From: a virus | Lineage: Duplodnaviria > Caudoviricetes | Reading direction: 5' to 3' (one strand) | DNA: 58,351 bases | IMG/VR virus record: IMGVR_UViG_3300026196_000002 | Location: 1 to 58,351 of that record | Shown here: positions 1,667 to 50,107 of the stretch, one piece after another | How positions within the stretch are numbered: position 1 is the stretch's first letter | How the letters are laid out: each line of letters opens with the position of its first letter | Notes under the pieces: generated by a model | The model's database searches: none | The model's input: only the letters and a program-made list of their open reading frames with translations | Told to the model about the DNA's origin: nothing | Translations under genes and position numbers: made by a program

Positions 1667-3751
1667 GTGGCCGTAAAAATCCACCCTTCAGTAAAGCCAG
1701 ACACACCGCTGGCGAAAATCCCTAGTCATGCTAAGTACCGTATGGCTCAACATGGGGCTGATATTGTCATTGGTGGTGATCACCCAACACTGGTGCTGCC
1801 GGAAGTCCGCGCCGATAAGTGGGGAGGTACGTGCTGGCTGACGGTTCGCCATGCCGACGCCGACCAGATGCATCCGCAGGATCGGCATACCGAGCGACTG
1901 GCTAATGGTAAGGTGGAGCTCGATCTGCCGGTCAGTGCCAAAGGCCGGACGCACCGGATAAAGCAGGGGTCGCTCAAGTGGGATATTGAGTATGCATCTG
2001 CGGAGTCGCTGCCTGCTGACGGGATCGAGCGGTTCAGCCTTGAGTCACCTGCTGGGCTGACATGGCATCACCAGTCTGCCTTGACACAGGCAGAAATCGA
2101 CGCGGGGCTCTCTCGTCCTGAGAACGTCATCAACTCTTACGCAGCCTACTGGAACCAATCAAACAATCAGTACGGCACCGGCAAATTCGCCCATCTTTAC
2201 CGCCCGGAAATGGTCGATGCTAGTGGTAACCGCGCTTGGGCCACCCAAGAGATTGTCGGTGATGAGCTGCGAGTAGTCCTCCCCCTCGGGTGGCTTGAGA
2301 CGGCGACCTACCCCGTCACCCTCGACCCAACTTTTGGGTTTGAATCGGTTGGTGCGTCTACTCGAAATGCATTAAATAATTATCTCATGGGGATTGGACC
2401 GTTCACGCCAACAGCTTCCGGGACTGTTACCTCCATATCCATCTATATGACGGTGGCGACTGACGGGACATCGGTAACGATGGGCCTGTACGACGATACT
2501 GCTGCTGACCCGGCAAATCGTCTCGGCAGCAGTTCCGGTGGTTCGGTCCCCAATGCGTGGGGATGGCGGGAACAGTCGGTGAGTGCGGAAGTCACGGGAG
2601 GAGCGGATTATTGGGTAGCTCAAAACCACGATACCGGCTACGCCTATCTCAAGTTTGACAGTGTTGCCGATTTCCATGGTGTTTATACTTCTGACACCTA
2701 TTCCGCAGGGTCGCTGCCAGACCCATTCGGCGCGATTGGCGGGTCTTGGTCTAATACTAAACATTCAGCATACGCCACCTATGCCGAGGGGACAAGTAGT
2801 TTTGGGTTTGTTGATAGTGGCGGGTTCAGCTTTGAAAATGATGGCGGCTTCGATTGGGGGGATACTGACGGCACCCTGACTTCTCCAGCGATTTCGGCAC
2901 AGCCGGTTGTCTCTTCACCAACTTTGCTTGGCGTCAGGGTTGGGATCATGACCGCCCCACCCGTCAGCGCCCGGCCTGCAGTTTCGGCAGTGGTTGCGAC
3001 GGGGGTTCAAAACGGCGAACTGACCGCCCCACAAATTAGTGCCCAACCAGTCGTCAGCCCCTCAACCCTGACGACGACGGCAGCGGCGGTGATGACTTCT
3101 CCGCAGGTTAGCGTTCAGCCTGTCGTCTCCTCCTCGGTTTGCACGGGCACCCAAAACGGGGCCATGACCGCCCCGGCAGTCAGTGCGCAGCCAACGGTTA
3201 CCGCCTCATTCCTTGTTGGCGGAGCTGTCGGCGTGATGACCTCTCCACAAACAACAATTCAGCCGAGCGTTGTTTCTTCCCTGTTATCGGCTGGGTCTTT
3301 CGGCTTGATGGATCCTCCGGCGGTTACAGCCCAACCGGCTATCTCTGTGTCAACTCTGTTCGGCGTCCGTAACGGGTCAATGTCCTCGCCGCCCGTTTCT
3401 GTCCAGCCTGAAATTGTTGCGACAGTCGCCTATGGTCTGCGCAGCGGGGATATGACTTCGCCAGCCGTGACGGTTCAGCCTGTTGTTCTGGCGGCGTCTC
3501 TGGCGGTCGGCATTCTCGATGGGGCAATGGCCTCCCCGGCGGTCAGTACCAGGCCGAAGCTTGCCGTTTCCTTGTTGTCTGGAGTGAGGATCGGGGCACT
3601 GGCAAGCCCAGCCCTGACTGTTCCGCTCTCTGTTACGGCGTCAAGATTATTGGTCGGGTCGGCAGAGGGCAACCCAAGGGAGGTTATTTATTTCCAGGGG
3701 CGGATAAAATCAATTACGCTTGATGGGCGGGTTAAAAACATACAAATTTAA
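1667..3751 (+). CDS. Putative virion structural protein with repetitive C-terminal half
   Basis: 694 aa; repeats of the form G-x-MTSPxVSxQPxV; lies in the tail gene region. Confidence 0.65.
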   Translation: MAVKIHPSVKPDTPLAKIPSHAKYRMAQHGADIVIGGDHPTLVLPEVRADKWGGTCWLTVRHADADQMHPQDRHTERLANGKVELDLPVSAKGRTHRIKQGSLKWDIEYASAESLPADGIERFSLESPAGLTWHHQSALTQAEIDAGLSRPENVINSYAAYWNQSNNQYGTGKFAHLYRPEMVDASGNRAWATQEIVGDELRVVLPLGWLETATYPVTLDPTFGFESVGASTRNALNNYLMGIGPFTPTASGTVTSISIYMTVATDGTSVTMGLYDDTAADPANRLGSSSGGSVPNAWGWREQSVSAEVTGGADYWVAQNHDTGYAYLKFDSVADFHGVYTSDTYSAGSLPDPFGAIGGSWSNTKHSAYATYAEGTSSFGFVDSGGFSFENDGGFDWGDTDGTLTSPAISAQPVVSSPTLLGVRVGIMTAPPVSARPAVSAVVATGVQNGELTAPQISAQPVVSPSTLTTTAAAVMTSPQVSVQPVVSSSVCTGTQNGAMTAPAVSAQPTVTASFLVGGAVGVMTSPQTTIQPSVVSSLLSAGSFGLMDPPAVTAQPAISVSTLFGVRNGSMSSPPVSVQPEIVATVAYGLRSGDMTSPAVTVQPVVLAASLAVGILDGAMASPAVSTRPKLAVSLLSGVRIGALASPALTVPLSVTASRLLVGSAEGNPREVIYFQGRIKSITLDGRVKNIQI

Positions 3752-8984: not shown

Positions 8985-9188
8985 ATGAAAATAGAACAAG
9001 AAAACCCACTTTATAAACCGATAACTATCACGCTTGAAGAATGGCATGAAGCAAAAGCATTGTTCGGAATTATTGATAAGGCTGAGGTGTGGAGATGCAA
9101 CGCAGAAAACCCAAAATTTACCCACGACGAAATTAAAATGTTAATAGACTTATCAGACGCACTGACCAACCAAGTTGTAAGCGTATAA
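8985..9188 (+). CDS. Cassette ORF, hypothetical
   Basis: RBS AAGGAG; stop codon within the GTATAAC core. Confidence 0.75.
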   Translation: MKIEQENPLYKPITITLEEWHEAKALFGIIDKAEVWRCNAENPKFTHDEIKMLIDLSDALTNQVVSV

Positions 9189-9318
9189 CTGACTTAGATC
9201 AGCTGCGGCGACGTGAAGTTAAGTTTATTACCGCATTAATCGGATAAAACAGACGTATGTTCCGTCCGCTTGATGCACTGGTTAGGTTCTTATCACAACT
9301 TTTTGAAAGGGAGTAATC

Positions 9319-9525
9319 ATGGCAGCAGAAGCTATTTATATTGTTTGGTGCCCGACCGGAGATACCCCACCAATTATCCGCCACCAGTCAGTTGACGAAG
9401 CACGAAGGGCGGCAAGGGATATGTGCCAAAATCACCCACACAAGGAATTTTTTGTGATGAGGGCTGTTGAGTCTGTGCAATACAGAACAGACCCTTTTGT
9501 TTGCAAGAGCTACTGTAAGCGTTAA
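9319..9525 (+). CDS. Cassette ORF, hypothetical phage protein
   Basis: RBS GGGAG; bounded by GTTAGGTTCTT and AAGAACCTAAC. Confidence 0.75.
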   Translation: MAAEAIYIVWCPTGDTPPIIRHQSVDEARRAARDMCQNHPHKEFFVMRAVESVQYRTDPFVCKSYCKR

Positions 9526-9642
9526 GAACCTAACATTACAAATAACTGGTGGCGACGAGCCGACCGAGCATTTAGCGAACAGGGTGTTCCATCCACGTTG
9601 ATTTGCTGGTTAGTTTGCGCTGCTGAGAAGAGGAGAACGACG

Positions 9643-9804
9643 ATGGCAAAAGGTGAAATGGATAAACAGCCCTGCAAAACCTGCGGAAAAGAAACGAACC
9701 AAGTCTTTAATATTGGATTCAAGGCTGTGCCCATTTGTAATTCGTGTGCGAACACGATAGCTATGCAGCAGTTGGGATGGTTGATTGAACACCAAGCAAC
9801 CTAA
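9643..9804 (+). CDS. Cassette ORF, Zn-finger (two CxxC)
   Basis: CKTC...CNSC; RBS AGGAG. Confidence 0.7.
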   Translation: MAKGEMDKQPCKTCGKETNQVFNIGFKAVPICNSCANTIAMQQLGWLIEHQAT

Positions 9805-9839
9805 CGTTACTGATAACCAGGGGCGACGAGGAGGACGTA

Positions 9840-10127
9840 ATGACTGACGAAATGGACTGTAACAGTTGCGTAGTGACTGATTTGGAAGATCAAGAGTGCG
9901 ACGTGTGCCATGCAGAGCAAGTGCGTGAACCCGCACAGGAACACCCCTCTGCGTTAATTGGCTTGTTAGCACGCGCTCTTTGCAAGGCGGACACCCTTGG
10001 ATATGAGCGCGGTTTCACTGACGCAGACCCTACGGCTGGAAACACCGATGATGCGTTAATGGAGGTGGTTGAAATGACATGGAAAGAATGGATAGAGGAC
10101 GCCGAGCAAGTTTTACGTGCGTGCTAA
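9840..10127 (+). CDS. Cassette ORF starting inside the attC loop
   Basis: RBS GAGGAGG inside site 9799-9971; two CxxC. Confidence 0.7.
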   Translation: MTDEMDCNSCVVTDLEDQECDVCHAEQVREPAQEHPSALIGLLARALCKADTLGYERGFTDADPTAGNTDDALMEVVEMTWKEWIEDAEQVLRAC

Positions 10128-10237
10128 CGTTGGAATAAGCGCGTGGCGGGTAATAGCTGGCGACAGGGTTTGATCCTGTGAACCACACCACTATTTCCAT
10201 CCGCTTCATGTACATGGTTAGCCAAGGAGTAGACATT

Positions 10238-10495
10238 ATGAAAAAGGGATATTTAATTTTAGCAAGAGCTCCGCTGCTACCAATACATGCGGTATGTGAG
10301 TTTATTTTATTGCTGGCAACCTTAATACTGCTGCCGTTTATTTGGATGTCTGGGCGGCTTATAGATATTGCCGAAAAGATGCCAGACATGAGTTGGTACA
10401 AGGGGGCTGAGTACCACAACTTAAAGGCGAGGATAAACGCGAAAATTAAAAAACGCCTGAAAGAGAAAGAAGCTCGTTTGCCGAAGGCTGACTAA
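10238..10495 (+). CDS. Cassette ORF, membrane protein
   Basis: RBS AAGGAG; hydrophobic segment. Confidence 0.7.
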   Translation: MKKGYLILARAPLLPIHAVCEFILLLATLILLPFIWMSGRLIDIAEKMPDMSWYKGAEYHNLKARINAKIKKRLKEKEARLPKAD

Positions 10496-10526
10496 CTATT
10501 GAGATAACCGGATTGTGGAGGAAGAG

Positions 10527-10778
10527 ATGGCATTTTGCAAACACAATGGCGGTGGACCGAAGACGTGCCCGGCATGTCGTCGCGAGGGTAGCAATTCCGC
10601 GTTGATTGACGGGTTAGCCGCCGAACAGATCAAAAAGGGGATAAGCGAGATTCTTCATGCCGCCCTGAGTGGAATAGACGAAACCCTGCGACATGAGAAA
10701 AGTTATATACGATGGGGGCTGGTCGAGAAAAGGATACATGAGAAAGTGGATGAACTGCTGAATGTTCATGGCGGCTAA
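10527..10778 (+). CDS. Cassette ORF starting inside the attC loop
   Basis: RBS GGAGG in the attC arm; CKH...CPAC. Confidence 0.7.
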   Translation: MAFCKHNGGGPKTCPACRREGSNSALIDGLAAEQIKKGISEILHAALSGIDETLRHEKSYIRWGLVEKRIHEKVDELLNVHGG

Positions 10779-10880
10779 CGAAATTAATAAGCGGCGGCGG
10801 CTCAATGGTGGGCCGCGTAGCGGCGCGGACAGGTTCACCGTCCGCTTGATTTAAGGGTTGTACGGCAGAGGAGGTGGAAA

Positions 10881-11039
10881 ATGGCATGCCCTGGATGTGG
10901 TTGTAAGGTGACTTACCAGCACGACTGTATGGACGACGACTACAATAGCGAAGGTGAAGAGTACGAACGGTGCGCAGCCTGCGGCTTTGTTTTTGATATT
11001 GAACTGGCCGCAGATGATGACGACGCCGAAAATTTTTAG
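10881..11039 (+). CDS. Cassette ORF, 52-aa acidic Zn-finger
   Basis: Manual translation MACPGCGCK...RCAACGF...; RBS GAGGAGG. Confidence 0.75.
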   Translation: MACPGCGCKVTYQHDCMDDDYNSEGEEYERCAACGFVFDIELAADDDDAENF

Positions 11040-11091
11040 CCGTACAACGCCCCAGTAAGCGGCTACGACGAAATGACGGAGGATTGACGCA

Positions 11092-11388
11092 ATGGAATGT
11101 ACACACCCAGAACCAAGGGCCTATTGTAAGCACGATGACGGATGCAACGACTGCGGCAAGTTTGGTTTAGCAGAGCCGGTTCCTAGTCCGCTTGACGATA
11201 TGGTTAGCCTGCAAGCAGTTCGAGCGTGCATCGAATATCTTTTAAATGGATTTGAGAGCCGAGAAGATGTCACACCACGAAAAATTTGTTTAGAGGCACT
11301 GCAAAGAAATGGGATACCGCTTGACGTTAAGTACAGCACCTTAGCAGAACGAACCAAAAGATACACTGTGAGCGTGGAAGGCAGATAA
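11092..11388 (+). CDS. Cassette ORF starting inside the attC loop
   Basis: Cys-rich N-terminus encoded in site 11042-11209. Confidence 0.65.
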   Translation: MECTHPEPRAYCKHDDGCNDCGKFGLAEPVPSPLDDMVSLQAVRACIEYLLNGFESREDVTPRKICLEALQRNGIPLDVKYSTLAERTKRYTVSVEGR

Positions 11389-11534
11389 ATTTTTCAGTAG
11401 GCTAACGCCCACGCATGAGCTGCGGCGACGAACTGCCGACCCGCGCCAGCGGAGTACCCCGCTATGTTCCGTCCGCTCGATGCGATTGTTAGATACGCTC
11501 TTCAATTTATTTTTATTTTATTTTACTTTTTCTG

Positions 11535-11563
11535 TTGACATGTGTCCCCATTGGGAATATAGT
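11535..11563 (+). promoter_or_regulatory. Strong sigma70 promoter inside a cassette, with a palindrome in the spacer
   Basis: TTGACA-17 bp-TATAGT; AT-rich upstream tract; TCCC..TGGGA dyad in the spacer. Confidence 0.85.
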
Positions 11564-11604
11564 TAAATAACAAACAAGGAACACTAACCCAACGGAGGCA
11601 CATC

Positions 11605-11925
11605 ATGGAAACAACATTAATCGTATCGTCCGGCCAGTACGAAACATCAGCTGTAAAGCTAGCTGTCAATCATAAGACGTGGGGCGGCCTCTGTCGCCGA
11701 ATTACCCAACTTGAAAATCAGTATGCTGTTTATGGTGACAATTTCGCGGGCTGGCTAAAAGCAAGTGTTTCGCTGGCGGACAGCCGCGACGAGTGGGGGG
11801 ATAATCAAATCATCGGGGGCCAGTGGTGCCAGCCCTATAACGGATGGCTGTCAGTGGAAGAAATCGATGGTCCGTTTATGTCCTACGATGATCTCCATAA
11901 AAAACTTTATGGGTGCAACCGATGA
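11605..11925 (+). CDS. Cassette ORF, hypothetical, with its own promoter
   Basis: RBS GGAGG; 106 aa. Confidence 0.8.
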   Translation: METTLIVSSGQYETSAVKLAVNHKTWGGLCRRITQLENQYAVYGDNFAGWLKASVSLADSRDEWGDNQIIGGQWCQPYNGWLSVEEIDGPFMSYDDLHKKLYGCNR

Positions 11926-12101
11926 CACCCGCCGAATTAATGGAGGACCGGCAAACGCTGGGCCTCAATATTACGCAGATGGCAGCCCGCCTGAACACGC
12001 CGCGTGGAACCTATTTGAAATGGGAGCGCGGTGAACGACGGGTGCCACCATGTTTGGATGTGCTGATACCGTTGGTGATAGAAAAAGACGGGAGTATCTA
12101 A
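11922..12101 (+). CDS. Small XRE-type HTH protein
   Basis: RQTLGLNITQMAARLNTPRGTYLKWERGER; ATGA overlap with the upstream ORF. Confidence 0.85.
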   Translation: MTPAELMEDRQTLGLNITQMAARLNTPRGTYLKWERGERRVPPCLDVLIPLVIEKDGSI

Positions 12102-12222
12102 CGGTGGTGATAAGCGGTGGATTGCTACCGCTTGCATACAAACGAATTAATCAAACTAGCAGCATGTAACAACCATCCGCTTGATTAGGTTGTTATAATG
12201 CGCTGTTTCGCAGGGGGCGGGA

Positions 12223-12405
12223 ATGGATGCAAAAGAGACTAGCAGATTGATAGGTGCCGCGTATAAGCGAGGCATTGAGGATATCTGCGACACAATGGCT
12301 GAATCTGTCCGAATTATTGCAGAAGGCTTGCCGGGAGTAACCTTCACAACACAAGACTTAATAGCCTTTATAGAGAAGGCCAAAAATGAGGGCCTAGCAT
12401 TATAA
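12223..12405 (+). CDS. Cassette ORF, hypothetical
   Basis: Fills the cassette; stop codon in the core site. Confidence 0.7.
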   Translation: MDAKETSRLIGAAYKRGIEDICDTMAESVRIIAEGLPGVTFTTQDLIAFIEKAKNEGLAL

Positions 12406-12535
12406 CAGTGATGATAACCAGTTGCCGTAGACAGGTGGATTGACCGCCGAGCAGTTATAGGGAGAACACGCGCCGCTCCTTGCAATCTGCGTTGATTTTT
12501 TGGTTAGTTTGCGCTGCTGAGAAGAGGAGATAACA

Positions 12536-12742
12536 ATGTTTAAACATGATGATAACTGTCCTGTTTGCGTAAAACACCCAATAGACGAGGTGCAATGCCA
12601 ATGTAAAGACCAATTTTATAGGGAAAAATTGGCGCTGGAATATTGTAACCAATACAACATAAACGATGATTCACCAGAAAGGGATGCAATAATAAACGCG
12701 TTTATAGTTGGGATAACTATTGGAGAAAAACGAGCAAACTAA
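12536..12742 (+). CDS. Cassette ORF, Cys-containing hypothetical
   Basis: RBS AGGAG; stop codon in the core site. Confidence 0.7.
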   Translation: MFKHDDNCPVCVKHPIDEVQCQCKDQFYREKLALEYCNQYNINDDSPERDAIINAFIVGITIGEKRAN

Positions 12743-12838
12743 CGGTAAAGCTAAGCGGCGGCGACGCGAGGCTTAAATAAAAACACCAGACGGATAACCC
12801 GTCCGACTTTAGCACCTTGTTAGGCGTGGGAGAATGAA

Positions 12839-13003
12839 ATGCAAATATTGGAACTTGTAAAACTGCTGAACCAGCAGGCAAACGAGATAGCGTCTGCTGG
12901 GCATAATGGCTGGGGAAATACAATGCGAGATGCTGCCGACAAACTTGAGGAGTTGCAAGAGCGTATTTACCAACTAGAGAATCAATGTGCTAATGGTGCC
13001 TAA
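12839..13003 (+). CDS. Cassette ORF, 54-aa coiled-coil
   Basis: Manual translation MQILELVKLLNQQANEIASAGHNGWGNTMRDAADKLEELQ...; stop codon in the core site. Confidence 0.7.
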   Translation: MQILELVKLLNQQANEIASAGHNGWGNTMRDAADKLEELQERIYQLENQCANGA

Positions 13004-13049
13004 CGGTAGTGATAAGCGGCGGATTGCCGCCAGAAGGGATACCACCGCA

Positions 13050-13322
13050 ATGGGCAGAAAAGAGCCAACACCTCCGCCAGAAAATGCCGTGAAGCCTTCG
13101 CCACCACCAGCACCACCTGTTCGGCAAAATTCGGCTGCTTGTTCCCGTCCGGTTGATTTGATGGTTATACGCAAAACCTTGGAGCGCGAAATTGCTTCTA
13201 AGCAAAAATCCGTTGATAGACTGCACCGAAAGGGTGCATTGGAGGCCGCTGCAAGGGAGGACGCTGTACGCGAAGGGCTAGCGTGGGGGCTATTCGTGCT
13301 GTCCCAAAAGTGCAGCGTATAA
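13050..13322 (+). CDS. Cassette ORF with Pro-rich N-terminus encoded in the attC
   Basis: MGRKEPTPPP...SRPVDLMVIR; start position uncertain. Confidence 0.55.
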   Translation: MGRKEPTPPPENAVKPSPPPAPPVRQNSAACSRPVDLMVIRKTLEREIASKQKSVDRLHRKGALEAAAREDAVREGLAWGLFVLSQKCSV

Positions 13323-13451
13323 CGACCTGCATAACAGGTGGCGACGTGCCGATGAAACTATTGACGCAATCAAAGCGGTTTTCGGGGAGCACAGACCTAT
13401 TTTCCATCCGCGTTGATGCACTGGTTAGCCCATACCAGAAAGGATCGCACG

Positions 13452-13646
13452 ATGTACGATAGAGATTTTTTAATTTGGCTACATGAGCGCATGGAGCATG
13501 TACACCAAGAAAGCCATTTAGTAGATTACATGCACAAGTTACGAGCGATAATTAAAAGGACCCCGCCAAAGCAAATGACACCGAATGCCATGGGCAAAAA
13601 CAACCTTGAAGAGCTGAAAGAGGAACTAGGCATCTTAAAGGGCTAA
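13452..13646 (+). CDS. Cassette ORF, hypothetical phage protein
   Basis: DRDFLIWLHERM...DYMHKLRAII. Confidence 0.75.
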   Translation: MYDRDFLIWLHERMEHVHQESHLVDYMHKLRAIIKRTPPKQMTPNAMGKNNLEELKEELGILKG

Positions 13647-13784
13647 CGCTTGCGGATAACCGGTGGCGCTGCTAACTGACAACCTTTACCGCAATTTAGA
13701 TTTTGCTTTTTGTAAACCACAGAGGCCCATTCCATCCGCGTTAATTAGCTTGTTATGTGGCCTGTTTCGGAATAGGGGACTGAT

Positions 13785-13970
13785 ATGAAAATAGTTATTG
13801 AACACGATACAGACGAAAAACAATACGGACGTGTGTTGGTGCAGACAAAGCATGGTGGACGATCTGATGTTAGCAATGGGGACTATGTTGAATTAACGCC
13901 TGAATTATTAGATGCGATTCAAAAAGCACAGGTTGAAATGGACAGGGTGAGTAGACTTTTGAAAGTTTAG
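13785..13970 (+). CDS. Cassette ORF, hypothetical
   Basis: RBS AGGGG; fills the cassette. Confidence 0.7.
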   Translation: MKIVIEHDTDEKQYGRVLVQTKHGGRSDVSNGDYVELTPELLDAIQKAQVEMDRVSRLLKV

Positions 13971-14102
13971 ATGCCACATAACAGTACTGATAAGCTGCGG
14001 CGACGCACCCTTTGCGGGCCACCGAGCTTATCGTAAACCACGGCGCTATTCCCCGTCAGCTTGATTATTTTGTTATATTTTAATTTTACACGGAGCAAGT
14101 TT

Positions 14103-14309
14103 ATGAAAAAACAAAGACCTATTTTTATTGAATACTCATGGGTTGACCCGTGGGACGGCAGTTTTTGTGCTGGAGGGAGTTGCCCATATTTAAAAGGAAG
14201 AATGCTACGCGGTGTATACCGCAAAGAAATTCTTGCTGCGAAGAAACTTGCAAGGGGATGGACCGGGCCCAGAACCCCAAGACTGCAGGTATTAGTCCAT
14301 AAAATATAA
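14103..14309 (+). CDS. Cassette ORF, basic hypothetical
   Basis: RBS GGAG; stop codon in the core site. Confidence 0.65.
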   Translation: MKKQRPIFIEYSWVDPWDGSFCAGGSCPYLKGRMLRGVYRKEILAAKKLARGWTGPRTPRLQVLVHKI

Positions 14310-14409
14310 CGCCCATGTTAAGCGGTGGCGGATGGACGGTGACTAAGAAGCAGACGCCTTGTTCCATCCGCTTGAACTAATTGTTAGCCCAAACCACAGG
14401 AGATCAAAA

Positions 14410-14580
14410 ATGATACAGATTGAACAGGTGGCAAATGGTTTTGTGGTGACTTCTGGCATAATGCACCGCGGAGAGTGCCGCAGCAATGATGACACGTACG
14501 TTTTTCAAACAATGGAAAATCTCCAAAAGTGGATTGATCAACATTTTAGCCCCGTGCAAAAGACCGCGAGGCAAGATTAA
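14410..14580 (+). CDS. Cassette ORF, hypothetical
   Basis: RBS AGGAG; IEQVANGFVV motif. Confidence 0.75.
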   Translation: MIQIEQVANGFVVTSGIMHRGECRSNDDTYVFQTMENLQKWIDQHFSPVQKTARQD

Positions 14581-14701
14581 GGGCTAACGTCAATGGTAAC
14601 CGGAGGCGACGAACCGGCTCGGCTACCTACGCAATTTTGATTTTCAATTTTGCACAGACGTATATTCATTCCGGTTCACTCAATTGTTAGCGAGGCGCTT
14701 T

Positions 14702-14926
14702 ATGGACTACCTAGGGATTTGGCTTCTTGTGCTGGTAGCGTTTGCCGGTGGGTGGGGATGGGGGCAATGGCAAGCAGAAAGAACAATGCGGCAAGAAAAG
14801 TCGCTGAACGAAAAAGGACGAGTGGTTGTTTCTATGCCAATGCGTGAAGACAACGCTTCTCAAATGATGGGGATGCTACAGGATTTAATAAAGCAGGCCG
14901 AAGAAACCAACGCCGAGCCACGCTAA
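14702..14926 (+). CDS. Cassette ORF with N-terminal transmembrane segment
   Basis: RBS GAGG; hydrophobic N-terminus. Confidence 0.7.
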   Translation: MDYLGIWLLVLVAFAGGWGWGQWQAERTMRQEKSLNEKGRVVVSMPMREDNASQMMGMLQDLIKQAEETNAEPR

Positions 14927-15051
14927 CAGTACTGATAAGCTGCGGCAGCGCACCCCTTGCGAACCGCCGCGCTTATCGTAAACCACAGCGCCATTTTTCC
15001 GTCAGCTTGATTTGATGGTTCAACGCCTACGCTACCAAGGGAGATAAAATT

Positions 15052-15240
15052 ATGGCAAACAGGAAAAGGTATACAAAGGTGACGCGGAATGAGGCGTGCT
15101 GTATTTTCGACGAAGACGGGCTGCTTGGAGAAATCGAAATTTTCCTCGAAGCTGAAGAGCCTGGCGACAAAATCACCCTCGAAATTGTTTCCATGACTGA
15201 GGATGAGTACGCCTCTTTGCCAGAATTCACTGGTTGGTAG
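15052..15240 (+). CDS. Cassette ORF, acidic
   Basis: RBS GGGAG; C-terminus similar to 48207..48389. Confidence 0.75.
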   Translation: MANRKRYTKVTRNEACCIFDEDGLLGEIEIFLEAEEPGDKITLEIVSMTEDEYASLPEFTGW

Positions 15241-15375
15241 GCGAGCGTTGAACGATTGGAATAAGCGGTGGAGCAGCTACCAGAGAGAACCTACGCAATT
15301 GCTCTTGCTTTTTGAGAACCGGCGCGGATCGGACATCCGCTTGATTTTGTGGTTATGCGTAACCACAGGAGGTTG

Positions 15376-15573
15376 ATGATGGGGATTATACGATTAACGC
15401 CGCAGTTACGGTACATCGAAACCGATGAGAATATGTCGAGTTTATCGCCGTGCACGCATCTACCCGGATACCCTGAAAATGGCAGCACGTTTTTCAAATT
15501 ACAGCAGGCGTGGGAAGATATTGAAGACGGAAGTTTGCATTGGAAAGACGTAGAAATTGATTATAGCGCATAA
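15376..15573 (+). CDS. Cassette ORF, hypothetical
   Basis: RBS AGGAGG; KLQQAW...WKDV motif. Confidence 0.75.
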   Translation: MMGIIRLTPQLRYIETDENMSSLSPCTHLPGYPENGSTFFKLQQAWEDIEDGSLHWKDVEIDYSA

Positions 15574-15701
15574 CGGTGCTGTTAAGCGGGTACGACGCGA
15601 CCTGTGAGACGCACCGAACAATTATCTTTGAAATCAGCAGCAGCCAATTTTACTCCGCTTGAACTTTTGGTTGTGCTGCAAACACTTTGAGCGAGGCAAA
15701 A

Positions 15702-15896
15702 ATGAACCCGATTGTAAAAGGTAGGTTTATATCAAACAAATGCCCAGATCCAAATTGTGATGGTGTTTTGCAACACAGACAGAACAAATATGGAGAAAAC
15801 CGCTGGGAATGTGACGGCCTTGTTGACCCAAATGATATTACAAAAGAGCTGCAACCCTGCCTTGTGGACGTGGTAGACGGGGAGTTACGTTTATAG
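15702..15896 (+). CDS. Cassette ORF, Zn-ribbon-like
   Basis: CPDPNCDG...WECDG...PC. Confidence 0.7.
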   Translation: MNPIVKGRFISNKCPDPNCDGVLQHRQNKYGENRWECDGLVDPNDITKELQPCLVDVVDGELRL

Positions 15897-16011
15897 CAGC
15901 ACAACGGTGAAGATAAGCGGCGGCGATGTGCCGTAACCTATGGAAAACAAAGCTATTTTCCGTCCGCCTTCATTTTATTGTTATAATTCGTACTTTATTT
16001 GCTGATTTCCC

Positions 16012-16039
16012 TTGACAACGTAACTAGTTATGGTAATAT
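16012..16039 (+). promoter_or_regulatory. Sigma70 promoter inside a cassette, with palindromic operator TAACTAGTTA
   Basis: TTGACA-16 bp-TAATAT with extended -10 TG; perfect 10-bp palindrome at 16021-16030. Confidence 0.75.
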
Positions 16040-16066
16040 CTAAGTAACTTAACAAAGGAGGCAGCC

Positions 16067-16258
16067 ATGAAGCAAAAAACTTGGATTAAGTATTCTGTGA
16101 AATCAATGATGGGTGAAGTTGTCAACGGTGAGATAAACCTGAATTGGGCGTTTGATGCTGACTTGGTGAACAATTTCGACAAGACCATGCGCTACCTTGA
16201 GCGGGACGCCGGTTGTTATATCAAGGAAGTTCTCGAATTTGAGTCGGGGACAAAATGA
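16067..16258 (+). CDS. Cassette ORF, hypothetical, with its own promoter
   Basis: RBS AAGGAGG. Confidence 0.8.
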   Translation: MKQKTWIKYSVKSMMGEVVNGEINLNWAFDADLVNNFDKTMRYLERDAGCYIKEVLEFESGTK

Positions 16259-16410
16259 CCAAACTTGATGACCTTCTGGAAGGGCTAACCGAGGCCGAAT
16301 TGAAAACACTACGTGCCAAGATAAACGGGAAGATCGGAAAGCGTAGTATATCGCCAGAGGCACAGGCCAAGATGCAGGAAGCGCGCAAGAAAAAGCACCA
16401 AGAATTATAA
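16255..16410 (+). CDS. 51-aa basic protein, possible DNA-binding autoregulator
   Basis: Manual translation MTKLDDLLEGLTEAELKTLRAKINGKIGKRSISPEAQAKMQEARKKKHQEL; ATGA overlap. Confidence 0.7.
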   Translation: MTKLDDLLEGLTEAELKTLRAKINGKIGKRSISPEAQAKMQEARKKKHQEL

Positions 16411-16539
16411 CATTTGGAATAACCGGTGGCCGTAGAAACCTGCGTGAGCCACCACTATTTTGCACTTAAATTTACAACCGCAGCCAGTTGCCATCCGCGT
16501 TGATGTCCCTGGTTATGTGGCCTGCTGAATGGAGGGAAA

Positions 16540-16710
16540 ATGCCAGATTTTGAGAGAGTGTTGGACGAACTGAGTATTGACCTAGCGCAGACAGATGCAG
16601 ATAGGCAGTATGCAAAAGGATATATAGCCGGTAAAAACCGGGCGCGGTTTGAAATACTTGGAGTGGTGGTTGTGCTGTATTTTGTAATAGCACTAATCGG
16701 TAAACTTTAA
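16540..16710 (+). CDS. Cassette ORF, 56 aa with C-terminal transmembrane segment
   Basis: Manual translation; RBS GGAGG. Confidence 0.7.
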   Translation: MPDFERVLDELSIDLAQTDADRQYAKGYIAGKNRARFEILGVVVVLYFVIALIGKL

Positions 16711-16841
16711 GCCACATAACAGTACTGATAAGCTGCGGCGGCGCACCTTTTGCGCACCACCGAGCTTATCGTAATTTGCAGCGCCATTTTCCGTCAGCTT
16801 GATTTGATGGTTGGCTGGCGCTGGTTCCTACGGAGAGAATA

Positions 16842-17033
16842 ATGAGCAAGAAAGAGCGACGGAACTACACCATTACCGCCGAACGTTCTGACCACGGCAA
16901 GTCGTCAGTTGACATCAAGTGTCCATTTTGTGGCTCGATCACAACCGCTTACCTTTGGTCCCTGGCCGGCAGTGGGAAAAAATGTGAATGTGGGGCAAAG
17001 CATACATATCTGAACGGGACAATTGCGGCATAG
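16842..17033 (+). CDS. Cassette ORF, Zn-finger
   Basis: CPFCG...WSLAGSGKKCECGAKH. Confidence 0.75.
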   Translation: MSKKERRNYTITAERSDHGKSSVDIKCPFCGSITTAYLWSLAGSGKKCECGAKHTYLNGTIAA

Positions 17034-17160
17034 CCAGCCAACAGTGAAGATAACTGGTTACGACGCGAACCAGGCGAACCACCGAGTTTTTCGAGAACCG
17101 CATCTTTATTTTAATCCAGTTCATTTTTTGGTTAGTTTGCGAACCTTGAAAGGGCAACCG

Positions 17161-17343
17161 ATGATTACTAAAACTACAATTTCAAACTTTATAAAAAAGA
17201 TCGATAAAAAGCAGATAAAAATCGGAAAAGAGCGAGACTCTTTAGACGACCTGATTTCTGATATGGCACAACTGCGCGAGGACTGCAGCGAAGCATGGGA
17301 CAATTTGCAGGACGCAAGAGACGCGCTGAGCCGTATGCAGTAA
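17161..17343 (+). CDS. Cassette ORF, coiled-coil
   Basis: Fills the cassette. Confidence 0.7.
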   Translation: MITKTTISNFIKKIDKKQIKIGKERDSLDDLISDMAQLREDCSEAWDNLQDARDALSRMQ

Positions 17344-17461
17344 AGCAAACTAACGTTCGAGTAAGCGGCAGCGGAAAACTGCCAAAATAAGAACCACACA
17401 GCTATTTTCTGTCCGCTTGACGTAGCTTGTTAGGCGTTACCACTACCGATGGAGCGTGGGA

Positions 17462-17647
17462 ATGATTGCTGATCTGAAACAACCGGCAAAATACTGGCTG
17501 GCTGATCACCTGAATAACTTTGGAGTATTACTCGAAAAAGGAGAAGACCCAAGTTGCCTGATTACCTACGGTGGTGTAGAGATCGAGATTAGGCTGAATA
17601 AGGTGCCAGGAGTCTTCGAGCGTAAAGAAATTTCACTTAGCGCCTAA
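17462..17647 (+). CDS. Cassette ORF, hypothetical
   Basis: RBS GGAG; stop codon in the core site. Confidence 0.7.
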   Translation: MIADLKQPAKYWLADHLNNFGVLLEKGEDPSCLITYGGVEIEIRLNKVPGVFERKEISLSA

Positions 17648-17675
17648 CGACCTGATAACCGGATTTGTGGAGGAT

Positions 17676-17972
17676 ATGATGGAAAAGTTTGTTGATGCGT
17701 TGCCAGAAGGTGAGCGTGAGCTACGTAAGTTTTTTGCAGAGACGGAAACAAATTCCGCGTTGATTGACTTGTTGTGCCCAGCCCGGATCGAGATAACCAC
17801 CGACCACATAGCCGAGAAATTGGATGAAATGGCCGACATTGCAGAATACTGGAGAAAGAACAGAGATAAAAAACGTATGCCAGGTGCGATACGTGCCGCA
17901 ATGCTGATGCTGGCCGAAGAATTGACCATGCTTAACAAAGTAAATGAAATTCCTAGACAGGAGTGCGGCTAG
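17676..17972 (+). CDS. Cassette ORF starting inside the attC loop
   Basis: RBS GGAGG in the attC arm; NSALIDLLC is encoded by the other arm. Confidence 0.7.
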   Translation: MMEKFVDALPEGERELRKFFAETETNSALIDLLCPARIEITTDHIAEKLDEMADIAEYWRKNRDKKRMPGAIRAAMLMLAEELTMLNKVNEIPRQECG

Positions 17973-18137
17973 TTATTTTAAGGGCACAACGCCCTGATAA
18001 CTGCGTTTGCGGGAAAGTACGTAGACATTATTCGGACAGGGGCGCAAAACGAGAAACCTAGACCGATTAAATTTGCAGAGCTGAAAGCAAATCCACGTTG
18101 ATTACGCTTGTTAGCCTGCCGAGAGAGGTAGCTAATC

Positions 18138-18329
18138 ATGAAAGTTTCGGAATTGATGGAACGGCTTGGAAAATACAACCCTGACGCTGATGTGGATGTT
18201 GTAGCCAATAACAAGGGCCACGAGTTCTCTTTTGCGTACGGCAATAGCGAAGGCTGCACCATAGAAAATTGTGAGACTGTTAGTTTGTGGGTAGACAGCT
18301 TAAATGACGGTGGCGAGTCAGCAGGCTAA
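18138..18329 (+). CDS. Cassette ORF, hypothetical phage protein
   Basis: MKVSELMERLGKYNPDADV-type N-terminus. Confidence 0.75.
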   Translation: MKVSELMERLGKYNPDADVDVVANNKGHEFSFAYGNSEGCTIENCETVSLWVDSLNDGGESAG

Positions 18330-18451
18330 CGGCTTGGTCAGCGGATGCGACGCAATGCTTGTGAACCACTGACCTCTTCAAAAATTTGCAGAAGTATTTT
18401 CATTCCGCTGCACTGAATGGTTGTGCGGCAAACAGCCAGAGCGAGGTAGAA

Positions 18452-18652
18452 ATGTTTGCATATCATTATTTTGCAGAGTTTAAGTGTGCGGCAGGCACAG
18501 CCAGGATGGATGGGGTAATCACGAGCGACAAAAAGATAGTAGATTACGACGGATACACAGCGATGAAGCGAGAAATCACAAAAGGGACAGACATTGAGGG
18601 TATGCCAGAGAAGCTATCTGTTTGCTCGTTGCAGCTACTTCATAAATTTTAG
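18452..18652 (+). CDS. Cassette ORF, hypothetical
   Basis: RBS GAGG. Confidence 0.7.
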   Translation: MFAYHYFAEFKCAAGTARMDGVITSDKKIVDYDGYTAMKREITKGTDIEGMPEKLSVCSLQLLHKF

Positions 18653-18705
18653 CCGCACAACGCCATAGTAACCGGCTACCCACTGAAAGAAAGGAACGCT
18701 GCGCA

Positions 18706-18984
18706 ATGAAATGCGACAAACACGATTGCTGGCTTGATGAAGAACCAAATAACCCAAGTGCGCTGTACTGCCCATTGTGCGAGGCAGAGCGGGACGTTAG
18801 TCCGGTTGACGAACTTGTTAGACCGCAGGCGCATATTGCAAGCGATTGCTCTGCAGAACACTTTGAGCGCGTGTTTAACTGGCAGAAACAAAATTTTACC
18901 TGCGCTAAATGTGGGACTGGACGCAGTGTGAAATATAAGAAGGGTGGAAAGCCGTACTGCAATATGTGTGTTCTAGCGGGCTAA
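18706..18984 (+). CDS. Cassette ORF, multiple Zn-finger motifs, starting inside the attC loop
   Basis: CDKH, CPLC, CAKC, CNMC. Confidence 0.7.
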   Translation: MKCDKHDCWLDEEPNNPSALYCPLCEAERDVSPVDELVRPQAHIASDCSAEHFERVFNWQKQNFTCAKCGTGRSVKYKKGGKPYCNMCVLAG

Positions 18985-19105
18985 CGAGGGAGTTGAGCGC
19001 TGCGGCGGTAGCGCACTGGCGAACCACCGCAATTTTGCTCTTGTAAATTTGCAGAATATTTTTCCGTCCGCTCGAACGTTTGGTTAGATTTACGGAGGCT
19101 ATAGA

Positions 19106-19315
19106 ATGGCAAGCGCGTATAGAGATGTTGATATTCGTGGACTTAGAAAGGCGCATTTTAACCAACTGCGAAACTATGTGCACAGTAGAGATGAGGAAGG
19201 CTGGTACTACGGCAACAAGGAGCAGTTTGAAAAGAGGCACGAAGACCTGAAACAATGGATTGATTCTGTTTGCGATCTATTTAACCAGAGTGATGTTGTT
19301 ATTGAGAAGAAGTAA
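19106..19315 (+). CDS. Cassette ORF, hypothetical
   Basis: RBS GGAGG; GWYYGNKEQFEKRH motif. Confidence 0.75.
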   Translation: MASAYRDVDIRGLRKAHFNQLRNYVHSRDEEGWYYGNKEQFEKRHEDLKQWIDSVCDLFNQSDVVIEKK

Positions 19316-19434
19316 ATCTAACGGTGAAGATAAGCGGCGGGGATTGACTGCCGACCCGCGAAGCGGCAACGCACAGCTAACCCCGTCCGACTTGATTATT
19401 TGGTTCTATTTCTAACCTGAAACGGAGAACGATT

Positions 19435-19617
19435 ATGGAAGTTTACAGACCGGACCGCCGCTGTGAAATTACCGGAATGCCACTTGACACATCTTCTATG
19501 GGTTTTTGGTCTTCGCCATTTAAAAAGGCTAAACGTGGCGGTACAAAAAGGACTGCTAAACAAAAAGAAAAGCAAAAGATGCAAAAGGCTAGCAGGCGTA
19601 AAAACCAGAAGAAATAG
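19435..19617 (+). CDS. Cassette ORF, highly basic
   Basis: KMQKASRRKN C-terminus. Confidence 0.7.
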   Translation: MEVYRPDRRCEITGMPLDTSSMGFWSSPFKKAKRGGTKRTAKQKEKQKMQKASRRKNQKK

Positions 19618-19759
19618 AACGTGAGTTATTAACCGGCGACAACGAGACTTAACAACTTACAGCGCAATTTAGATTTTTCTTTTCGGACAAAAACAGAAGC
19701 CGATTTCGTCCGGTTGAATTATTTGTTAGTTTGCGCTGTTACAAAAGAGGGAGGACGAT

Positions 19760-45664: not shown

Positions 45665-46897
45665 GAAAAACCTCCTTGGATACCCCGTCCCTTGGGGCGG
45701 GGAGGAAAAGGGGTTGCACGTCAGTGCAATCGGTGTTATATTATCCTATATGAAACGAACCGTATCCGTCAAGCTGAATACGACCACTGAGCAGTCATCA
45801 TACCTTTCTGCGCTACAGGCCGAGTTCGCCGTCGTCTGCAATCTTGTGGTCCCTTTCGCCCGCGGCAACCGCTGCTGGAACCGTGTTGCGCTACACCATT
45901 TGGCCTATTACCCGGTGAGGGAGGTCTCCCCGCTTGGATCGCAAATGGTCTGCAATGCCATCAAGGCCGTAGCCAATGCCTACAAGGGGCTGAAGCTCAG
46001 GCGCAAGGATGAGGTCCCGACCGTTGTCTTCAAGCCCACCGGGTGTGTCCATTTCGATGCCCGCACCTTCTCCGTCAAGGGCGATATCGTTTCGCTCTAC
46101 ACCATGGCCGGGCGGCAGGCCGTCCCGATGTTGCCCGGTAAATTCCAGGCAGAATATCTGGCCAAAGGAAAAATCAAGGAGGCCGAACTTCTCCGCAAAC
46201 GCAACACTTGGTTTCTGAATATTGTCCTCGACCTCCCCGATGCCCCGCCCGCGACTGGTGGCGGCAGCATGGGGGTAGACGTGGGCGAGAATAACCTGGC
46301 TGCCACCTCCGCCGGAAAGATCATCGGTGGCAGTCGTCTCCGTCACACCCGCGACAAGTATCTTGCCCTTCGTCGTCGGCTTCAACGCAACGGCTCGCAG
46401 AGTGCCAAACAACTGCTCTGCAAAGTCTCCGGTCGCGAAGCCCGGCACATGAAGCATGTCAACCACGAAGCCAGCAAGGCCATCGTCGCGGAAGCCCTCA
46501 CTTCGGGCGCTTCGACCATTGTTCTGGAAGACCTCACGCACATCCGCAAAAACATCAAGGCTGGCAAACGCGTTCGTGCCCGGCTGCATCGGTGGGCGTT
46601 CGCACAGCTTCAATCCTTCGTGCGCTACAAGGCCGAAGGTGTGGGGCTGGCAGTGGCCATCGTCGATCCCGCCTACAGTTCGAAGACTTGCGCGGTGTGT
46701 GGTTGTCTCGGTACTCGGTTGAAGCATCGTTTTTCCTGTTCTGCCTGTGGAAACCTGGCGCACAGCGACTTGAACGCGAGTCGGAATCTTGCCAAGTTGG
46801 CTCCCTCTGCCGAGGGTTCCAGGGTCGCCGTAACCCGGCCTTATGTGGCAACTTCGGTTGACCATAATGCTCCGTCGCTTGCGGCGGGGTAGTTTAC
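45665..46897 (+). mobile_element. IS200/IS605-family element, TnpB only (IS1341-like); left boundary approximate
   Basis: Left hairpin CCCCGTCC-CTT-GGGGCGGGG (about 45683-45702); right hairpin CTCCGTCGCTTGCGGCGGGG followed by TAGTTTAC; no tnpA. Confidence 0.8.
45750..46892 (+). CDS. tnpB: RNA-guided endonuclease TnpB
   Basis: RuvC motifs GVDVG, IVLEDL, HSDLNASRNL; zinc finger CAVC/CSAC. Confidence 0.93.
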   Translation: MKRTVSVKLNTTTEQSSYLSALQAEFAVVCNLVVPFARGNRCWNRVALHHLAYYPVREVSPLGSQMVCNAIKAVANAYKGLKLRRKDEVPTVVFKPTGCVHFDARTFSVKGDIVSLYTMAGRQAVPMLPGKFQAEYLAKGKIKEAELLRKRNTWFLNIVLDLPDAPPATGGGSMGVDVGENNLAATSAGKIIGGSRLRHTRDKYLALRRRLQRNGSQSAKQLLCKVSGREARHMKHVNHEASKAIVAEALTSGASTIVLEDLTHIRKNIKAGKRVRARLHRWAFAQLQSFVRYKAEGVGLAVAIVDPAYSSKTCAVCGCLGTRLKHRFSCSACGNLAHSDLNASRNLAKLAPSAEGSRVAVTRPYVATSVDHNAPSLAAG

Positions 46898-48389: not shown

Positions 48390-48495
48390 CTGTATTCCCC
48401 TTTCGTAGGTAAGCCGTACAACCAGCAAATCAAGCGGATGAAAATACTGGTGTGGTTTCTATTCAGCGGTCATCCGTCACCGCTTATCATGGGCG

Positions 48496-48645
48496 TTATG
48501 TAGCTTTAAAAATTTCAGCTAATTTTTCTTCTAACCACTTTACTTCCCTATATGACCCTTCTCCGGTCAACTCAATAGTCCAGGCTGTTGACTCTGTATT
48601 CGTGTTTGTTATGGGCTTCTGTTTTATAATGGTCGTTGCTTTCAT
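48496..48645 (-). CDS. Cassette ORF, 49 aa
   Basis: Manual translation MKATTIIKQKP...LAEIFKAT; RBS GAGG; stop codon in the core site. Confidence 0.65.
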   Translation of the reverse strand: MKATTIIKQKPITNTNTESTAWTIELTGEGSYREVKWLEEKLAEIFKAT

Positions 48646-48778
48646 ATCCACCTCTGCCGCATAACCAGTAAATCAACCGGACGGGAATTAGCTTCTGTTC
48701 TTAGGCTGTTCAACTCGGTGGTCCTCCATCGTCGGCAATCCGCCGGTTATCGCCATCCGTTAGCCAGCCTTCGGCAAA

Positions 48779-49069
48779 TTAAATACCCTCGCCAATAAAA
48801 TGCTCTGATATTTTGTCTGCGGTTTCGGGGTCAAATAGTTTTTCGGTGATAAACCAAATCACTTCCTCAACACCTTCGCGCATTCCTACTTTACGAAACT
48901 CGTCAAGTTGCACATCGCAACGTGCGTGAAACTCTTGCTGCCACTTTTCAACCTCTGCGATCAACCACTCAAGCGTGTCTTGGTCATCAACTCCCCAATG
49001 TGGCGTTGTTGCTAATTGCTCAGTGTGTTTTGCGAGCTTCTTCGCTTTTTCCAACAGTTCCATTTTCAA
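48779..49069 (-). CDS. Cassette ORF, hypothetical
   Basis: Fills the cassette; WLIAEVE motif. Confidence 0.7.
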   Translation of the reverse strand: MKMELLEKAKKLAKHTEQLATTPHWGVDDQDTLEWLIAEVEKWQQEFHARCDVQLDEFRKVGMREGVEEVIWFITEKLFDPETADKISEHFIGEGI

Positions 49070-49164
49070 TGCCTCTCAGAATAAGGCTAACAATTAGTTC
49101 AAGCGGATGGAACAAAGCGTCTGTCTCTTAGTCACCGCCCATCCGCCACCGCTTAACATTGGCG

Positions 49165-49416
49165 TTAAATTGCTTGCATATCTTTCAGCGCCAACGCCAT
49201 TGCTTTCGCCGGGCCGGTGTACTTTGTAATGCACTTTCGGCAAGGAACAACCTGTATCCCTGGCACCTTTTCCATACATCCACCAGTGGGCAATGGCGGG
49301 TTATCCATATCAGTTGTCGTAAATTGGCACTTAACCGTCTGCTCCGACTGTCTTTTTATGCCTAGCAGGGCACCGCATTCTGAGCAGAAAAATTGAAGAA
49401 TAAGGTTATTTCTCAT
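49165..49416 (-). CDS. Cassette ORF, Zn-finger
   Basis: CSECG...PCRKC; RBS AGGAG. Confidence 0.7.
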   Translation of the reverse strand: MRNNLILQFFCSECGALLGIKRQSEQTVKCQFTTTDMDNPPLPTGGCMEKVPGIQVVPCRKCITKYTGPAKAMALALKDMQAI

Positions 49417-49512
49417 AATGTTGCTCCTTTCAAGAGCGCAATTTAACCAACTAATCAACCGGACGGAAGAACCGTCTGCGCTAAATGCCCGATCCAGGGC
49501 ACCGCCGCTCGT

Positions 49513-49728
49513 TTACTTTTGCTCATTGCCTAGCCTCCTCATTCTGAATTGAACCCTAAAATTATCACCCGCGATTGTTGCTATTGCTGTACCGTCGTCG
49601 TGTTCTTTCAGCAACTCTATTACTCTAAAATCTACTTCATGTATCAACCCACAATCGCAACATTTCATTTCGTATTTATTCATTTGTGGCTTTACCCACT
49701 CATTACTTCTTACCTTGTAAAACCCCAT
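49513..49728 (-). CDS. Cassette ORF, CCDCGL-H family small protein
   Basis: EWVKP...KCCDCGLIHEVDF. Confidence 0.75.
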   Translation of the reverse strand: MGFYKVRSNEWVKPQMNKYEMKCCDCGLIHEVDFRVIELLKEHDDGTAIATIAGDNFRVQFRMRRLGNEQK

Positions 49729-49883
49729 AAACAACCCCTTATGTCTGCTTCGCAGCCACGCCGTTTTAAAATCTAACCAGTGCATCAAGCGGACGGAACA
49801 TACATCTGTTTTAGGCCGATTAATGCGGTAATAGTTTGTTGCTTCACGTCGCCGCAGCTTATGCGGGTCGTTAGCTGTTTAAT

Positions 49884-50081: not shown

Positions 50082-50107
50082 ATTTATAACCTTTATGGAG
50101 GCACCAA

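Follow-up and report, generated by a model that had tools for sequence, protein, structure and literature searches.

Can the attC site of an integron cassette, usually treated as a non-coding hairpin behind a promoterless gene, also carry the start of a gene? The question is raised by a tailed-phage genome (Duplodnaviria; Caudoviricetes; IMG/VR record IMGVR_UViG_3300026196_000002), whose whole length of 58,351 nucleotides is the window that we analysed. An initial annotation, made from the letters of the sequence, had picked out six attC-type sites in which an open reading frame (ORF) appeared to begin in the hairpin loop and to run through one arm into the gene that follows. The best overall explanation is that the phage carries attC arrays in which six genes start in the loops, with the site probably doubling as coding sequence. 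We take the argument in steps, from the identity of the sites and the strand on which they are read to the translation of the loops and the likelihood that the sites can still recombine.

Identity of the sites

The repeats are gathered in two arrays, which together hold 39 attC-type sites:

9182-19732, plus strand: main array, 32 attC-type sites interspersed with small same-strand ORFs (26 R1 matches at E<0.01 and 6 long sites found by their arms)
48415-50902, minus strand: second array, 7 attC-type sites with minus-strand genes (R1 matches and ORFs)

R1 is a covariance model that was built from an alignment of 17 clear site copies and applied at a threshold of E<0.01. It detects 33 sites in the window, 26 on the plus strand (9182-19732) and 7 on the minus strand (48415-50902), and it misses five of the six sites with a reading frame in the loop (the coding sites, numbered 1 to 6 below) because their loops are long, the sole one detected being site 2 at 22.8 bits. 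Long sites missed by R1 were located through their arms. A pairing-based search, by which the L-stems were scored, replaced separate-arm nhmmer models, which when paired recovered only 24 of the 39 window sites.

An AAC near the 5′ end and a GTT near the 3′ end are invariant in all 17 aligned copies, and both triplets are present in 38 of the 39 sites, the exception being 49440-49532. The consensus shows the R and L pairings, with changes on both sides (compensatory changes) in 6 of the 14 predicted pairs. From AAC to GTT the sites measure 63-165 nt. The central spacer predicted on the 5′ side is 6-8 nt long, that on the 3′ side 6-7 nt. The L-stem of the six coding sites forms 10-11 of its 11 pairs. 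In all six, a T and a G (an A in site 1) bulge out 6 pairs apart, and three of the six have a third bulge in the middle. Arms can be alike where loops differ, as in sites 2 and 5 and a site from another viral locus (L089). In the account of the attC bottom strand given in PMC5027507, AAC lies in R′ while the extrahelical bases (a G first, a T last and sometimes a third between) are on the opposite arm, the first and last being set apart by a 6-bp stem. The anatomy of the phage sites agrees with these published defining features of attC, namely paired R boxes, L-box bulges, 6-bp spacing and a variable terminal structure.

A two-arm pattern found four times in the window and never in shuffles was run over bacterial genomes and matched 94 bacterial stretches, many of which are in Desulfuromonadales, Geopsychrobacteraceae and other assemblies named 'delta proteobacterium'. 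Four of the five such genomes searched encode an integron integrase above the TIGR02249 cut-off, and in two Geopsychrobacteraceae genomes (G004 and G001) R1 finds 17 and 6 sites (23 in total) directly upstream of intI. Judged by their anatomy and these host matches, the phage repeats are integron attC sites of the chromosomal-integron type from Desulfuromonadales-like bacteria. The same features could be looked at as phage RNA hairpins (terminators, processing signals or translational operators) that happen to resemble attC, as the phage is without an integrase, only a single match was found among 80 phage loci related by the large terminase subunit (TerL), and every cassette has its hairpin in mRNA sense, which would suit a role in RNA. 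However, the very same covariance model matches the host cassette arrays beside intI at scores of up to 71.5 bits, the identity of the bulges and their 6-bp spacing are those that IntI requires, and extended box complementarity flanks each gene, as is expected of cassettes. We consider it very improbable that the repeats are RNA hairpins instead of integron sites, and a role in RNA could co-exist with recombination.

The array is no assembly chimera, since independent contigs of the probable source sequencing run connect it to phage genes at both ends.

Three further observations concern the sites as a family. One site in each array, 14303-14390 on the plus strand and 49084-49171 on the minus strand, are near-identical, with the similarity running from the TAAC box to a few bases past GTT; the genes flanking the two are unrelated on both sides, leaving the pair uninformative as to which neighbour accompanies a site. 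The sites at 13975-14079, 14920-15025 and 16713-16817 form a sub-family that is 71-87% alike over 94 nt. In the predicted fold of 16713-16817, a complement in the loop is a better partner for the 5′ inner arm than the distal bulged arm is, giving an alternative hairpin.

Strand and layout of the cassettes

The plus strand of the main array fits the description of an attC bottom strand, as its AAC lies in the 5′ arm and its extrahelical bases in the arm opposite. In the hosts, R1 matches beside intI are all on one strand per genome and point towards intI, and the host genes are on the other strand. Because AAC stands opposite the bulges, and because R1 points towards intI in the hosts, the strand of the phage genes is the bottom strand. 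Orientation was scored as the strand on which a gene of at least 40 codons, with a Shine-Dalgarno (SD) sequence and an ATG, follows the site. Among the 39 window sites, such a gene follows on the R1 strand only at 28, on the opposite strand only at 1 and on both at 0; at 12 other viral loci (42 sites) the corresponding counts are 26, 2 and 0, and in the host arrays beside intI (23 sites) they are 0, 8 and 1. This test was used instead of one that compares the longest ORF on each strand, which left 19 of 26 window intervals ambiguous, the phage cassettes being small. At bacterial loci, a clearly longer ORF lies opposite to R1 in 52 of 77 inter-site intervals and on the same strand in 7, and the intI-adjacent arrays behave likewise. 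With a codon model trained on the large genes of the phage, the annotated plus-strand frame scores best for 20 of 27 ordinary cassette ORFs, where chance would give about 4.5. Going by these comparisons, the phage systematically has its cassette genes on the bottom strand of attC, in a layout opposite to that of the hosts.

The sedentary chromosomal integrons of the Geopsychrobacteraceae (G004 and G001) are like the phage arrays in attC family, array architecture and the presence of 1-2 small ORFs per cassette. They differ in that host genes occupy the top strand and are each followed by a site, whereas phage genes occupy the bottom strand and are each preceded by one. Opposite-strand cassettes are known from Vibrio integrons, toxin-antitoxin cassettes being an example. 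Bottom-strand genes are also found in most cassettes of the 12 other viral loci with the same site family (among them L081-L091), and the reversal seems to be undescribed, as a search of full-text literature (excluding subscription papers and supplements) returned no report of a bottom-strand phage attC array. That other viral contigs share it with this phage suggests a pool of phage cassettes whose reading sense is opposite to that of the host pool, which bears on the origin of cassettes and on the passage of genes between phages and integrons.

The 5′ box reads TAAC in 29 of the 39 sites, and in 21 the TAA in this position terminates an open frame of at least 40 codons; the TAA of the box ends the open frames, and the genes therefore extend up to the predicted crossover point. 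Cleavage is placed between A and C of the bottom-strand AAC in PMC5027507. Given cleavage at that position, a cassette would consist of a site and the gene downstream of it, and a loop-encoded N-terminus would stay with its gene. The initial annotation had proposed an inverted design that keeps these N-termini inside the mobile unit; its inverted layout is upheld by the AAC, the bulge positions and the comparison with hosts, whereas mobility is what we infer.

Strong sigma-70-like promoters were seen at 11535-11563 and 16012-16039 (11/12 and 10/12 matches), inside the only two-gene cassettes. These cassettes, 11605-12101 and 16067-16410, one of which encodes an HTH_3 protein, may be self-expressed regulator or toxin-antitoxin modules.

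Reading frames that open in the loops

The coding sites and their ORFs are as follows, with the length of each site counted from AAC to GTT:

9798-9972, plus strand: coding site 1, three bulges, 165 nt, 11/11 L-stem pairs, bulges T and A
9840-10127, plus strand: ORF 1, 95 amino acids, the N-terminal 42 from loop and arm (CxxC-x9-CxxC); its stop is the TAA of the next site's box
10489-10620, plus strand: coding site 2, three bulges, 122 nt, R1 score 22.8 bits, 11/11 pairs
10527-10778, plus strand: ORF 2, 83 amino acids, with a Cys/His-rich loop-encoded start
11041-11210, plus strand: coding site 3, two bulges, 160 nt, 11/11 pairs
11092-11388, plus strand: ORF 3, 98 amino acids, loop part Cys/His-rich
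12997-13171, plus strand: coding site 4, two bulges, 165 nt, 10/11 pairs
13050-13322, plus strand: ORF 4, 90 amino acids, loop part Pro-rich, weak SD (GGGA)
17641-17778, plus strand: coding site 5, three bulges, 128 nt, 11/11 pairs
17679-17972, plus strand: ORF 5, 97 amino acids, with a further ATG at 17676 and a conserved two-helix hairpin as its body
18654-18824, plus strand: coding site 6, two bulges, 161 nt, 11/11 pairs
18706-18984, plus strand: ORF 6, 92 amino acids, loop part Cys-rich

All six sites described in the initial annotation as having a start codon in the loop are present to within 1-2 nt, and upstream of every ATG stands an SD-like core (AGGAGG, GAGGA, GAGGA, GGGA, GAGGA and AGGA for ORFs 1-6, with the ATG of ORF 1 at 9840). 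They had also been called the six longest or near-longest sites, which is right in so far as the six rank among the seven longest of the 39; the seventh, 17983-18117 (125 nt), has no ORF starting in its loop. The loop ATG sits 86-125 nt upstream of the GTT box in all six, and the frame then stays open through the 3′ arm and for 52-66 codons more. Within about 90 nt past GTT, none of the six ORFs has an SD-preceded start apart from an SD-like core before a TTG at +75 in ORF 4. This TTG and an ATG at +109 in ORF 1, which would leave only 17 residues, are the nearest in-frame SD-like starts past GTT. At 21 of the remaining sites, an SD-ATG stands 16-49 nt past GTT in the listed frame. Loop ORFs with an SD-ATG that read at least 35 codons through GTT occur at 6 of the 28 structurally detected window sites and at 5 of 23 sites in other viral loci, where several of the five have no in-frame Met past GTT; the bacterial count is 1 in 167, and that case is doubtful.

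The composition of the loops points in the same direction as the placement of the starts. In 157 codons the loops hold 15 Cys and 5 CxxC motifs, either count being reached in 0 of 20,000 shuffles, and CxxC is found neither in 1057 codons of non-coding loops nor in the other two frames of the same loops. The Cys/His pattern of loop 3 is also kept in P0005, a short protein described below, which speaks for coding. Four loops contain paired Cys/His motifs of the zinc-knuckle type; the four Cys-rich N-termini reported earlier are borne out by this composition, and the modules that they encode look like zinc knuckles. The gene bodies are coding by the codon model, their summed log-odds being +33.6 in the ORF frame and between -45 and -108 in the alternative frames.

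The six ORFs had been thought to cross the arm in one shared frame. Two frames are in fact used: GTT is read as a codon in three ORFs (sites 11041, 12997 and 18654) and as xxG TTx in the other three (sites 9798, 10489 and 17641). Of the 33 sites without a coding loop, 26 have the GTT-codon frame open over the final 30 nt of the arm, 25 the xxG TTx frame and 3 the third frame, other readings being closed by a TGA in the arm and the TAG in GTTAG. Since the two used frames are open in most arms anyway, their use needs no special explanation. The peptides quoted for the six arms (PSALIGLLA, NSALIDGLA, PSPLDDMVS, SRPVDLMVI, NSALIDLLC and VSPVDELVR) are correctly translated. As they come from conserved DNA read in two frames, the recurring peptide is a by-product that falls into two loose classes dictated by that DNA, and its suggested value as a protein-level marker for such arrays is unsupported.

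Relatives of ORF 5 were found as four protein homologues and at nine metagenome loci; a scan of viral contigs returned none of the family. The alignment comprised ORF 5 and 11 homologues (7 of the 9 loci are represented, L200 encoding the same protein as L199 and L204 having no start within its contig). Conservation of the body begins just past the arm, and E46, K47, L48 and D49 are invariant, all of them before the first internal ATG (residue 51). In a structure model based on this alignment, the predicted local distance difference test score (pLDDT) is 82-94 for the two-helix body and 47-59 for the loop-encoded part. The initial annotation had proposed checking whether homologues swap N-termini at this point, and those of ORF 5 do carry unrelated N-termini (three of them Cys-rich) or none. 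It had also held that homologues lacking the loop-encoded part would speak against translation; 4 of the 11 lack the extension, which shows it to be optional and not that it is untranslated. One of these, L201, has the ordinary layout of site, SD and ATG. In L202, the SD and ATG are inside a 125-nt attC-like site with 10/11 pairs, and the arm is read in the other frame. Five loci with ORF 5 homologues have R1 matches at E<0.01, all on the gene strand. Because of the placement of the SD-ATG starts, the missing downstream starts, the Cys and CxxC statistics and the ORF 5 homologues, loop coding is supported, and for most of the six ORFs we consider translation from the loop ATG likely.

A GTTAG-type box adjoins the junction of a Cys-rich N-terminus and the conserved body in two of the ORF 5-homologue loci (L198 at about 960-990 and L205 at about 30-60), with no full site detected at either. 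These boxes may be decayed sites, or sites that precede the N-terminal module.

Several results weigh against loop-encoded starts in working attC sites, and those that concern translation are taken here. Codon usage gives no coding signal in the loops, the sum being -10.1 in the ORF frame and -8.8 in the next frame; at -0.065 per codon the loops score like non-coding loops (-0.087) and do not share the codon usage of the genome's genes. Their atypical Cys- and Pro-rich composition may explain the absent signal. ORFs 3 and 4 carry an in-frame ATG without an SD 3 nt before GTT, a possible alternative start, and the TTG codons that ORF 5 has in its GTT box could likewise be SD-less starts. No homologue was found for ORF 1 or ORF 6 (among 5.8 billion proteins ORF 1 matched only itself; ORF 6 also gave a self match only), and no Pfam or PHROG family for any of the six ORFs. 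The only N-terminal match of ORF 3 is P0005, a protein of 40 amino acids on a 6.4-kb contig that is 74% identical to residues 1-23 and keeps all Cys and His; the other ORF 3 matches are repeat proteins that align with the body, and as P0005 is so short, its loop peptide may end before the arm. No further case like the pair of ORF 3 and P0005 came up in scans of viral and metagenome contigs. A tblastn search of the six proteins against 197 loci gave no match, and when their N-terminal and body parts were compared by blastp with every frame of 119 loci, the matches were to themselves or, for the Pro-rich loop 4, weak and of low complexity.

An annotation artefact, with translation beginning at or past the GTT box and the loops open by chance, would account for the lack of a codon-usage signal. 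Arms are also open in two frames at most sites, several ordinary sites are likewise open in the gene frame for 86-121 nt upstream of GTT, and four ORF 5 homologues begin right after the site position. An artefact does not sit well with the absence of a downstream SD-preceded start in the six, when an SD-ATG gene start lies within 75 nt at 28 of the 39 sites, nor with a Cys and CxxC excess that is confined to the ORF frame or with invariant ORF 5 body residues upstream of the first internal ATG. We regard it as highly unlikely.

In the body of ORF 3, residues 45-80 (11260-11330) match one unit of a repeat that recurs many times in the proteins P0003 and P0007 and that may be DUF4116-like.

The remaining points against concern recombination. 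Free-energy folding of three long sites (two coding and one long non-coding) gave structures without arm pairing, with z-scores of -0.80, 0.19 and -0.57, and on such predictions long loops may recombine poorly. The phage encodes no integrase. Two public DNA runs showed no excised or rearranged cassette with a clean TAA|C junction; their contigs break or branch at the repeats with joint sides of only 20-30 nt and hold no interpretable cassette junctions. Of the runs listed as containing the stretch, none was of RNA. It is possible that the six ORFs are translated from the loop ATG in what are now fossils, old attC sites absorbed into coding sequence with arms that are mere linkers. The unpaired minimum-free-energy folds and the lack of rearrangement junctions would fit such a history, as would the length of the coding sites (122-165 nt, against a typical 78-114 nt) and the failure of R1 to detect five of the six. 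Yet the L-stems are as intact as in ordinary sites (10-11/11 pairs), the bulges and spacers are correct, and two arms of which one is under protein constraint would not be expected to stay complementary without selection on pairing. Similar arms with different loops, moreover, recur in sites 2 and 5 and L089. Fossil sites seem to us a possible but unlikely account of the six.

Under the preferred explanation, in which the sites still pair as attC and code as well, each phage cassette would read C, 5′ arm, loop, bulged 3′ arm, GTTA.., gene, ..TAA, and a host IntI would recombine the sites at the TAA|C box so that site and gene move as a unit. The loop (the variable terminal structure) is the only part of attC that is free in both length and sequence, and in six cassettes the ribosome-binding site and ATG would have moved into it. 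Where the site heads the gene, a start codon born in the loop would give an N-terminal extension while leaving the pairing undisturbed. Translation would then pass through the bulged L″/R″ arm into the gene body, the outcome being an optional N-terminal module (29-42 residues) that the peptide encoded by the arm would link to the body. A more speculative reading, which we consider doubtful, is of protein evolution that resembles exon shuffling. In phages preying on bacteria with integrons, attC would have been turned round to stand at the head of each gene, and the arm would act as an in-frame joint at which loop-encoded modules, often zinc knuckles, are gained, lost or exchanged, through arm homology or rare IntI cleavage at GTT. 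The ORF 5 family could be a snapshot of it, as one body is combined with at least four unrelated N-termini, two of them seemingly from attC loops in different frames.

Known systems and the phage genome

Clusters of attC sites without an integrase (CALINs) are known in phages, where IntI1 recombined 5 of 6 phage attC sites tested (PMC9892861), and section 3.4 of that paper sets the minimum for a CALIN at two attC sites. A search of the complete 58-kb genome for a tyrosine recombinase gave 0 PF00589 matches. Both phage arrays are integrase-less and of the CALIN type; neither has the intI and attI adjoining the array that make a complete integron. The likeness to the phage CALINs of PMC9892861 lies in attC sites without intI in a phage genome. 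The present phage differs in having 39 sites in two arrays, with bottom-strand genes and six starts in loops, neither of which is mentioned in section 3.4.

Embedding attC in reading frames is presented as an engineering feat in PMC7439510, in which the synthetic coding attC sites are in silico designs that have loops of 3-21 nt and lie wholly within the ORF. The likeness is that one DNA meets the demands of both structure and frame and that the attC-encoded peptide is a linker between protein parts. Here, by contrast, the sites are natural, and the ORF starts within a site of 120-165 nt and crosses the bulged arm only. A second comparison is with ORF-11 and ORF-17 in attI1 and with fused cassettes such as gcuF1-blaOXA-28, where, as described in PMC8876359, a frame spans the crossover and a start in the site affects the downstream gene. 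Those frames lie in attI or at the junction of two cassettes in canonical orientation, so recombination separates their parts, whereas in the phage the start and body would share one cassette. In the literature search described above, no report of a natural ORF that starts in an attC loop was found. As predicted from the phage DNA, this is a DNA recombination site doubling as protein-coding sequence, something that has so far only been engineered in the laboratory. A natural coding attC would indicate that evolution can reconcile the constraints of structure and coding, and would supply real arm sequences as peptide linkers. There is also a practical side, as tools that call cassette ORFs between attC sites would truncate genes that start in loops, and five of the six coding sites escaped our own covariance model.

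The window begins and ends with the same 127 bases, a terminal direct repeat, in keeping with the IMG/VR record, which lists a 58-kb virus genome with direct terminal repeats and an estimated completeness of 100%. The gene content includes terminase-like and structural genes, a DnaC/IstB-like ATPase, an amidase and a TnpB-like protein. Megablast with 19 kb of the window found nothing similar among GenBank phages, and TerL relatives (45-56% identity) yielded 1 attC-site match only among their 80 loci. Three features outside the arrays may be added. A 72-nt periodic repeat (families D7 and D15) occupies 2877-3492 within an ORF of 694 amino acids (1667-3751) that has no Pfam match. Between the tail genes and the second array, 45714-46892 holds a TnpB/Cas12f-like ORF (OrfB_IS605 and TNB domain). 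Beside the DnaC/IstB-like gene, six tandem 12-nt repeats at 52388-52483 may be the iterons of an origin.

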